Assembly (NCBI GenBank): GCA_947623555.1
Contig: CANQGW010000002.1
Location: forward strand, 21,746-85,745
Reading direction: 5' to 3'
Source: an uncultured Clostridia bacterium
GTDB taxonomy: Bacteria; Bacillota; Clostridia; TANB77; CAG-508
DNA length: 64,000 bases
Shown here: positions 16,695-17,001 of the stretch, piece after piece
How the letters are laid out: the number at the start of each line of letters is the position of its first letter
How positions within the stretch are numbered: the first letter of the stretch is position 1
The notes under the pieces: model-generated
Database searches by the model: none
Told to the model about the DNA's origin: nothing
What the model saw: the letters and a program-made list of their open reading frames with translations, nothing else
Program-made: the position numbers and the translations under genes

Positions 16695-17001
16695 TGGAGC
16701 CACTTATCTGATTCGAACAGATGACCTACTGATTCATACTACTATAATTTTCATTACCACATTTTATTGTGTTTGTAGTCTGGACTTTCTCTTTGCCATG
16801 GCATTTGCTTTAGGCATGCCGTATAAAGTCTCTACACTTAAAAACAAATTGTTTTCTAGCTCGGGATTAGCATTTTACAGCCTTCCCCGAATTAGCGGCA
16901 TCCACTTTATGCGTTTCCACATAAAGGTGCAAGATAGTTCAAAGTAAAATAATTTTACCTATCCCACAAGTCAGTTGCTCTACCAGCTGAGCTAAAGTGG
17001 C
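16695..17001 (-). tRNA. tRNA-Thr (anticodon TGT) interrupted by a group I intron. Exons 16966-17001 and 16695-16734
   Basis: 5' exon GCCACTTTAGCTCAGCTGGTAGAGCAACTGACTTGT, 3' exon AATCAGTAGGTCATCTGTTCGAATCAGATAAGTGGCTCCA. Normal acceptor, D, T arms, G1-C72/C2-G71, loop CUUGU|AA split after U36. Confidence 0.7.
16735..16965 (-). ncRNA. group I self-splicing intron (IC3, Azoarcus tRNA-Ile / Anabaena tRNA-Leu intron type), 231 nt, no ORF
   Basis: Contains AAAGTGGATGCCGCTAATTCGGGGAAGG, AATCCCGAGC, GTGTAGAGACTTTATACGGCATGCCTAAAGCAAATGCCATGG and AAAGAGAAAGTCCAGACTA, which match group I cores. Ends in omega-G. IGS CUAUCUUGCA pairs with exon UGU giving the U.G pair at the splice site. Confidence 0.7.

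Follow-up and report, generated by a model that had tools for sequence, protein, structure and literature searches.

Close to the chromosomal origin of an uncultured Clostridia bacterium, the 64-kb window analyzed here (the whole stretch of DNA, part of contig CANQGW010000002.1) contains a transfer RNA (tRNA) gene for threonine, tRNA-Thr(UGU), on the minus strand at 17001-16695, which is split after U36 by a 231-nt intron (16965-16735). The coordinates given by a first-pass annotation of this DNA were confirmed, and its central reading, a group I intron of IC3 type without an open reading frame (ORF) between positions 36 and 37, holds. We are confident that the locus is a functional tRNA-Thr(UGU) gene with such an intron, to which a less certain layer is added by the proposed partnership of the intron with a neighboring HNH endonuclease gene. 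The parts of the gene and of its intron, including the paired helices P1 to P9, are as follows.

16966..17001, minus strand: tRNA-Thr(UGU) 5' exon, 36 nt; acceptor 5' strand, D arm, anticodon-stem 5' strand and C32-U36, with U36 as the -1 residue
16735..16965, minus strand: group I intron, IC3-like, 231 nt, no ORF, omega-G at 16735
16928..16968, minus strand: P1; exon UGU and intron GGGAUAG (16968-16959) paired with the internal guide CUAUCUUGCA (16937-16928)
16905..16926, minus strand: P2; 9-bp stem with a GAAA tetraloop cap; 5 of 7 counted pairs change on both sides, GAAA invariant
16896..16900, minus strand: P3 5' strand UGCCG; pairs with 16821-16817 (CGGCA), forming the P3/P7 pseudoknot; 100% paired
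16861..16890, minus strand: P4 (UCGGGG/UCCCGA) and a short P5; P4 invariant, one P5 pair compensated; aligns to P4/P5 of both covariance models
16836..16860, minus strand: P6 (GCU/AGU) and the P6a hairpin; 3 of 6 pairs compensated
16826..16832, minus strand: P7 5' strand with bulged A (G-A-GACUU), after J6/7 GUGUA; pairs with 16787-16782 (AAGUCC)
16794..16816, minus strand: P8 with an 11-nt-receptor-like motif; 4 pairs compensated
16739..16778, minus strand: P9 three-way junction of P9 (CUAC/GUAG), P9a and P9b with a GAAA cap; 4 pairs compensated
16695..16734, minus strand: tRNA-Thr 3' exon, 40 nt; A37, A38, anticodon-stem 3' strand, variable loop, T arm, acceptor 3' strand, U73 and CCA

Exon boundaries and intron anatomy

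When ligated, the two exons rebuild the canonical cloverleaf that had been predicted for them, a 76-nt tRNA with loop CUUGUAA, the pairs G1-C72 and C2-G71, and an encoded CCA. ARAGORN identified the ligated exons as tRNA-Thr(tgt) and, in its intron mode, reported tRNA-Thr i(37,231) at c[16695,17001]; default ARAGORN and Rfam at the gathering threshold called nothing at 17001-16695. The gene is also, as had been proposed, the last of a Lys-Glu-Thr operon, with tRNA-Lys and tRNA-Glu placed upstream on the same strand by ARAGORN.

Intron-less relatives with the same Lys-Glu-Thr operon position were found by means of the downstream short-chain dehydrogenase (SDR) gene. The ligated exons are identical in 76/76 positions to the uninterrupted syntenic tRNA-Thr genes of loci L124, L126, L129, L134, and L143, and these uninterrupted alleles were called tRNA-Thr(tgt) without any intron logic. 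Loci L123 and L124, which encode the same SDR protein, have flanks that are 99.3% identical and differ at the site by an exact 237-nt intron.

ARAGORN and tFind may shift the boundaries of such introns by two bases (PMC13011429), and a tRNA-Asn with an intron at 35/36 has in this way been miscalled as tRNA-Thr(UGU) with an intron at 33/34 (PMC13011429). The chance that boundaries or isotype are wrong here in the same manner is vanishingly small. The call at this locus is 36/37, not 33/34, and among the 8 junctions that can be enumerated in the anticodon loop it is the sole one with U(-1) and G(omega) and with a U36.G wobble within a 10-bp P1; furthermore, the relatives' uninterrupted alleles comprise exactly the predicted 76 nt. 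The remaining junctions were rejected for lack of U(-1)/G(omega), and the single one with C(-1)/G(omega) would put an AUG anticodon on a Thr body.

The 10 pairs of P1 form in 12/12 aligned sequences, one of them with compensation (G-C in 7, A-U in 5), and its loop holds a small hairpin. The pairing of the internal guide CUAUCUUGCA with exon UGU, claimed from the window's sequence, is borne out by the alignment: the U36.G wobble that marks the 5' splice site is U.G in 12/12 sequences (columns 36/75). At the other end, the anticipated omega-G is present as the G at 16735, and GUAUG ends all 12 homologues. The core motifs quoted by the first-pass annotation (AAAGUGGAUGCC, GGGGAAGG, AAUCCCGAGC, GUGUAGAGACU, ACGGCAUGCC, and AAAGAGAAAGUCCAGACUA) were all found in the intron. 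Its architecture is that of IC3 introns, being small, without a P2.1 or P5abc extension, and with P2 and P9 capped by GAAA loops and P8 carrying a tetraloop receptor; the L2 and L9b GAAA loops are invariant in the alignment. The stability of the intron fold corresponds to z = -3.3, and this value and the covariance-model matches given below place the intron far beyond chance. No intron-encoded homing endonuclease was found: the homologous introns are all 218-243 nt long, and no ORF of more than 49 aa lies within the window's intron at 16735-16965.

Homologues, covariation, and predicted splicing

A covariance-model search, named in the first-pass annotation as a check on the intron, gave a divided answer. 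The Rfam model Intron_gpI (RF00028) aligned end to end with the intron over model positions 1-253 and scored 28.3 bits (E 2.5e-5 in a 501-nt search), which formally falls short of the gathering cutoff of 50. A second model, R1, was built on the cores of 27 introns, all of Arg(CCU), Leu(UAA), or Ile2/Met(CAU) type, and contained no Thr sequence; it gave a single match in the window, at 16922-16776 on the minus strand, with 99.6 bits and an E-value of 8.5e-26. On other tRNA introns the same Rfam model yielded 60.9 bits for Bartonella Arg(CCU), 43.8 for Leu(UAA), and 30.4 for the Azoarcus-type Ile2 intron of Aquitalea. The Rfam Intron_gpI seed held no bacterial sequences, as stated in a preprint (Williams 2020, doi 10.1101/2020.01.27.920355). 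Because the accepted Leu(UAA) and Azoarcus-type introns also lie below the cutoff and the seed is without bacteria, the shortfall lies in the model and not in the candidate, and the missed threshold was set aside as a refutation.

Homologues were retrieved with a degenerate core pattern from one genome per species, giving at least 119 loci, at which intron-mode ARAGORN found mostly split tRNA-Leu, tRNA-Arg, tRNA-Met/Ile2, and other genes. At least 11 loci in species-representative genomes are tRNA-Thr(UGU) genes with a 218-243-nt intron at the same site. These Thr(UGU) introns, which occur in further metagenome lineages too, are 77-88% identical to that of the window and mostly share its Lys-Glu-Thr-SDR synteny. 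Other split tRNAs among the matches listed are Leu(CAA) and Leu(CAG) in Saccharibacteria (L035), Lys(UUU) (L090), Arg(UCU), Ser, Phe, and Ile, so that IC3-like introns appear in many tRNA types across metagenome-assembled genomes (MAGs) of many phyla (L004-L122); some of the calls ('Pyl', 'Stop') are artefacts of the intron mode.

One locus in a different setting, L032:7253-7919, belongs to an uncultured Bacilli MAG (CANPZG010000001.1) and contains a Thr(UGU) intron, 77% identical to the window's, in a Val-Thr-Tyr-Gln-Lys array. The locus is not syntenic with the window, and its 8 kb of sequence contain no HNH homologue. This suggests either that the intron is ancient or that it was transferred between classes.

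We aligned 12 distinct Thr sequences, consisting of the genome representatives and the window (alignment A1). RNAalifold unaided identified the four cloverleaf stems, with the anticodon stem closing across the intron, together with P1, P2, P4, P5, P6, P6a, P7, P8, P9, P9a, and P9b. After P3 was added, standard pairs occupied 99.6% of 1020 cells, and 29 of the 85 pairs changed on both sides. None of 500 shuffles reached these pairing measures, and when the partner strand was slid by 1-3 columns only about 37% remained paired. Compensated changes were found in P2, P3, P5, P6a, P8, P9, P9a, and P9b, in one pair of P1, and in the acceptor, D, and T stems of the exons. The core helices P3-P8 stand in canonical order with the P3/P7 pseudoknot, and all helices are 97-100% paired across the 12 sequences. 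In place of P3, RNAalifold had drawn a local hairpin (columns 99-103/107-111) that is mutually exclusive with it; this hairpin has no compensated change and was rejected, whereas P3 is 100% paired with two pairs that change on both sides (U-A to C-G and G-C to A-U), with G.U intermediates in L032. The intron has the anatomy listed above, every helix and the cloverleaf are under selection, and the intron boundaries are exact.

Several properties of these data, in addition to the missed Rfam cutoff, weigh against the reading. The 25-base retrieval pattern is common to the window and to the sequences of model R1. P4 and P7 show no variation among the homologues; P7 and J8/7 are so because the retrieval pattern demanded them, and hence they provide no covariation evidence. 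The P8 motif of the window, CCUAAA...CAUGG, deviates at two positions from the canonical CCUAAG...UAUGG of most relatives. Lastly, the sequence covered is a 64-kb window, in which no other tRNA-Thr is listed, and a second, uninterrupted tRNA-Thr(UGU) may lie elsewhere in the genome.

The operon around the split gene has the following features.

17254..17282, minus strand: promoter-like site of the tRNA operon (TTGACA, 17 nt, TAAAAT), about 43 nt upstream of tRNA-Lys; a consensus match only, 11/12
17136..17211, minus strand: tRNA-Lys(UUU), first gene of the operon; ARAGORN; Rfam tRNA 66.5 bits
17007..17081, minus strand: tRNA-Glu(UUC), second gene of the operon, 5 nt before tRNA-Thr; ARAGORN; Rfam tRNA 64.4 bits
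16644..16692, minus strand: terminator-like hairpin followed by UUUGUUUU; -17.7 kcal/mol, z = -6.45; kept in the alignment of relatives
15835..16590, minus strand: SDR gene, the downstream neighbor; context, used as the synteny anchor

The number of promoter-like sites in the region does not exceed that in shuffled sequence. The hairpin 3' of tRNA-Thr, which a U-run follows, was overlooked by a consensus terminator scanner and revealed by folding. Three ENA assemblies of the window's organism (L001, positions 1-20; L002, positions 1-30; and L003) have contig ends at most about 20 nt upstream of tRNA-Thr. These ends fall at the boundary of tRNA-Glu, a gene that probably occurs more than once in the genome and thereby interrupts assembly. 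Samples containing the organism are ENA ERZ27249180, ERZ27249647, and ERZ27249167.

The window represents the chromosomal origin region, with dnaA, dnaN, recF, gyrB, gyrA, and mnmG. The G+C content of the genome is 25% and that of the intron (16965-16735) 36%. On the other strand, a 576-aa ORF (17788-19518) that lies just upstream of the tRNA operon has weak similarity to coupling proteins of TraD/TrwB type; it is conserved in all syntenic relatives and is therefore not a recent mobile insertion. Elsewhere, two adjacent ORFs with TIR_2 domains (4357-5904 and 5894-7444) and a DUF6273 ORF (7474-9102), labeled by Pfam in the L001 gene table, lie within a few kb of tRNA-Lys(CUU) (11505-11580); the group at 4357-9102 may be an anti-phage defence islet.

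A Lys-Glu-Thr precursor would be transcribed from the sigma-70-like promoter and end at the hairpin terminator. By homology with the Azoarcus and Anabaena pre-tRNA introns (review PMC3984707), the intron is predicted to fold into P1-P9 with the P3/P7 pseudoknot, the exon anticodon stem standing beside P1. The fold would probably be braced by docking of the L2 GAAA loop on the receptor of CCUAAG/UAUGG type in P8 and of the L9b GAAA loop on P5. An external guanosine bound in P7, the presumptive guanosine-binding helix, would attack after U36, which is in U.G wobble pairing with the guide; the intron's last G (16735) would then occupy the same site, and ligation of the exons would give loop CUUGUAA. 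Judged by its family, from which catalysis is extrapolated, the intron very probably self-splices.

An intron that is real could nevertheless sit in a dead or redundant copy that no longer splices, with another tRNA-Thr(UGU) elsewhere doing the work. The restriction of our view to 64 kb, the two deviating positions in the receptor-like motif of P8, and the decay of the window's nuclease partner described below are in keeping with this. Even so, it is quite improbable: the exons match the relatives' working alleles in 76/76 positions; pairing is intact in all helices of the window's intron, and this holds for P3 too, which is two compensated pairs away from that of relatives; the gene lies within an operon with promoter-like and terminator-like signals; and an identical copy is found in three independent metagenome assemblies of the same organism.

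The tRNA-Thr(UGU) decodes ACA, expected to be a heavily used Thr codon at 25% G+C. As default tRNA finders and the Rfam threshold miss the gene, genomes of this gut lineage would seem to be without tRNA-Thr(UGU).

The neighboring HNH endonuclease gene

In many relatives, a free-standing ORF of 125-129 aa directly follows tRNA-Thr on its 3' side and precedes the SDR gene. The 128-aa ORF is an HNH endonuclease (Pfam HNH, 25.1 bits with a cutoff of 21.4; PHROG HNH families, E 2e-18). A PDB sequence search with the protein returned only weak McrA-like matches (E of at least 0.25) and one spurious match. The window retains a relic of this gene.

16565..16645, minus strand: relic of the HNH homing-endonuclease gene; in-frame C-terminus ...NCHSLTSTYKGANRNYGRKQRKKY with a stop codon before it; tblastn 66-69% identity to residues 93-127

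The statement of the first-pass annotation that there is no homing endonuclease ORF is accurate for the intron itself and fails for its surroundings, since this stub, directly 3' of the tRNA, belongs to a gene that is intact in relatives. The relic now provides the downstream SDR gene with its ribosome-binding site (AAAGGAG) and start region, and HNH remnants in all lineages keep the same 3' end of the gene, which serves SDR in this way. The end points of the deletions vary between lineages, indicating that the HNH gene decayed several times independently. The lineages are distributed as follows, with the one polymorphic species entered in two rows (L123 type and L124 type).

Intron present, HNH intact: 8 lineages (L123 type, L132, L025, L068, L031, L050, L051, L009)
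Intron present, HNH remnant only: 5 lineages (window, L006, L020, L064, L151)
Intron absent, HNH remnant only: 4 lineages (L124 type, L126, L129, L143)
Intron absent, HNH intact: 0 lineages

The polymorphic species (SDR proteins P0091, P0077, and P0106, carried by more than a thousand contigs) segregates two haplotypes, one with intron and HNH gene and one with neither. An L123-type locus is that of ENA ERZ28617717 scaffold_33, range 39645-45400. Among the contigs read, all 7 that bear the intron have an intact HNH gene and all 5 without it have the stub. Intron and endonuclease gene are present or absent together among these close relatives. The haplotypes diverge chiefly in the stretch that starts at the Lys-Glu spacer and runs to the HNH 3' end, and the next 3.3 kb downstream are identical. 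At its upstream side, a 44-nt segment of the Lys-Glu spacer, L123:1594-1637, differs from L124 by indels and at 14 sites, a pattern that looks like the edge of a gene-conversion tract.

The HNH protein has 198 phage homologues. Among those inspected, 7/8 are located in tRNA arrays and 5/8 directly abut a tRNA-Thr gene. The closest three all lie beside tRNA-Thr(UGU), in the Enterococcus phage iF6 (56% identity), the Xanthomonas phage XbC2 (43.5%), and the Synechococcus phage DSL-LC03 (42%). The homologue of Klebsiella phage vB_Kpn_B01 is also beside tRNA-Thr(UGU), and that of Streptomyces phage Jada adjoins the Thr(GGU) member of a cluster of three tRNA-Thr genes. In the iF6 record (MT909815.1; L153:2400-2964), the HNH homologue is without annotation and overlaps the start of tRNA-Thr(UGU), and the strands of the annotated tRNA features conflict with those given by ARAGORN.

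An ORF-less intron that is mobilized by an adjacent free-standing endonuclease is known from phages as collaborative homing (review PMC3984707). Applied to this locus, the HNH nuclease would cut intron-less tRNA-Thr(UGU) genes, the intron would render its own chromosome immune, and intron and HNH gene would be copied together by gene conversion, spread as a pair, and then decay. The loci may then be arranged as stages of one cycle, with both elements intact, with the intron beside a nuclease stub (as in the window), or with neither element. An intact adjacent endonuclease gene is found in 8 related lineages and is reduced to its C-terminal part in the window, which leaves the intron there stranded, without its likely mobility partner. 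We advance collaborative homing tentatively, from the pattern of presence, absence, and divergence at these loci and, as indirect support for cutting by the enzyme, from the position of its closest phage homologues directly beside tRNA-Thr(UGU), and give it slightly less than an even chance of being right.

The same loci could also have arisen with the intron as a purely vertical passenger and the HNH gene as an unrelated selfish element homing to the 3' flank of tRNA-Thr, intron-less alleles resulting from precise loss and co-occurrence from linkage. This is a live alternative, if less likely than not, and many of the points that weigh on the nuclease layer count in its favor. The distance between intron and HNH gene is 86 nt, which makes their linkage trivial. 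The association of the intron with an intact HNH gene across lineages is only marginal (hypergeometric p ~0.05, the lineages not being independent). HNH stubs occur at all syntenic loci, including those of intron-less alleles, which indicates that the HNH gene is old in the lineage and fits loss as well as gain. The divergence of both intron and HNH gene tracks that of the host moderately (r ~0.5 with SDR identity), implying that much of the history was vertical. In the phages, the tRNA-Thr genes next to the HNH homologues are uninterrupted, and at the Bacilli locus L032 the intron belongs to another tRNA array, the 8 kb of sequence there being free of an HNH gene. What a vertical passenger accommodates less readily is that the intact HNH gene stands beside the intron in 8/8 lineages and never with an uninterrupted tRNA-Thr, and that the haplotypes of one species differ by both elements, with conversion-tract-like divergence and 3.3 kb of identical sequence downstream. 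Similarly, the introns of L123 and L025 are 94% identical and their HNH proteins are mutually closest (79%), yet their SDR proteins are 61% identical.

Since bacterial tRNA introns almost never come with an endonuclease gene, they are regarded as hardly mobile (PMC13011429). At the one locus studied here, close relatives, and even members of a single species, either have or lack the same intron, and its presence is tied to a neighboring HNH gene, making the locus a natural and testable system for the long-standing question of how ORF-less tRNA introns spread and are lost. If collaborative homing is the correct reading, this would be its first case on a bacterial chromosome as well as in a tRNA gene, its pair would still be segregating in an abundant human-gut species, and it would explain the patchy distribution of endonuclease-less tRNA introns. 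The window itself displays only an ordinary end state, in which a conserved intron that, by analogy with its family, very probably self-splices lies beside a dead endonuclease gene.

Comparison with known tRNA introns

Four settings of bacterial tRNA group I introns are classical: Leu at 34/35, fMet at 33/34, Arg at 36/37, and Ile2 at 36/37. The nearest type outside the Thr group, with 62-64% identity, is the tRNA-Arg(CCU) intron of alpha-proteobacteria (Agrobacterium/Bartonella; 'Arg.5Ug'), which shares the 36/37 site, U(-1)/G(omega), the IC3 core, a length of about 226-230 nt, a P9 three-way junction with GAAA, and the lack of an ORF. It differs in host tRNA and bacterial lineage and in its Rfam score (60.9 as opposed to 28.3 bits). 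We know of no free-standing nuclease adjacent to an Arg(CCU) intron.

The intron had been described as almost identical to those of Azoarcus and Anabaena, which applies to the short core motifs and not to the sequence overall. With the Azoarcus tRNA-Ile(CAU) intron ('Ile2.5Ug'), the structural model of IC3, it has in common the 36/37 insertion, the three-base exon part of P1, the L2 GAAA loop, the CCUAAG/UAUGG receptor in P8, GUGUAGAGACU in J6/7-P7, and AGUCCAG in P7'. Its identity to the Azoarcus-type seed is 51%; P9 is a simple hairpin in Azoarcus and a three-way junction here, and the Azoarcus P5 and P6 are longer and GC-rich. The tRNA-Leu(UAA) intron of cyanobacteria and plastids (Anabaena; 'Leu.3Ug') resembles it in the IC3 core, in motifs like AAAGAGAGAGUCC in J8/7, and in exons paired in the anticodon stem beside P1, but is inserted at 34/35 and is 56-57% identical in the two seeds compared.

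Phages were searched for related introns as well. A scan of viral contigs for the Thr-type intron junction gave 0 matches, and blastn against phage records found only the tRNA-Leu intron of a 735-kb uncultured phage (LR756501.1). In that phage, tRNA-Leu(UAA) is split at 34/35 by a 205-nt group I intron (L154:1443-1733) whose core is 72% identical to the window's intron; in 2014, all phage group I introns then known were in protein-coding genes (PMC3984707).

The proposed mobility has its counterparts in phages too. As in phage collaborative homing, both elements are present or absent together among close relatives; the difference is that the locus here involves an HNH enzyme and a tRNA gene on a bacterial chromosome, with a stub in the window and with cleavage of the insertion site as a proposal. 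The T4 SegB endonuclease is free-standing in a tRNA cluster, cuts tRNA genes, and drags flanking tRNA genes along (PMC2330249), and F-TflI/II/IV of T5 are further free-standing endonucleases of phage tRNA clusters (cited in PMC2330249). Like these, the phage homologues of the HNH gene are embedded in tRNA arrays (7/8). In contrast, SegB is a GIY-YIG enzyme, and no intron is present in the SegB and T5 systems.

The view that group I introns in bacterial tRNAs are rare and known mainly from cyanobacteria and proteobacteria, held in the first-pass annotation, is out of date. The Williams 2020 preprint (doi 10.1101/2020.01.27.920355) counts 5292 such introns in 21 settings, including Thr.5Ug (tRNA-Thr 36/37); tRNA introns of this kind are reported from 18 phyla (Nakagawa 2026, PMC13011429); and at least 119 loci were retrieved here. 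A tRNA-Thr with a group I intron at 36/37 is thus already on record, in that preprint and in Nakagawa 2026, which describes 'divergent' tRNA-Thr(GGU) 36/37 introns in Patescibacteria (PMC13011429). The Thr.5Ug class (seed Rba53) and the Patescibacteria introns share the Thr family and the 36/37 site with the window's intron. They differ in being Thr(GGU), GC-rich, 52% identical (Thr.5Ug seed), and grouped with IA introns in PMC13011429, whereas the window's clade is Thr(UGU), AT-rich, and IC3-like. In the complete-genome Table S5 of PMC13011429, the Bacillota phyla have only Arg(UCU), Asn, and Ile2 introns and no tRNA-Thr intron. The host tRNA, Thr(UGU), and the lineage were barely documented before for such an intron, and this 2026 survey of complete genomes does not list them. 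By sequence comparison, the Thr(UGU) clade of Clostridia and Bacilli is a distinct member of the known IC3-like tRNA introns, at most 64% identical to the other types.

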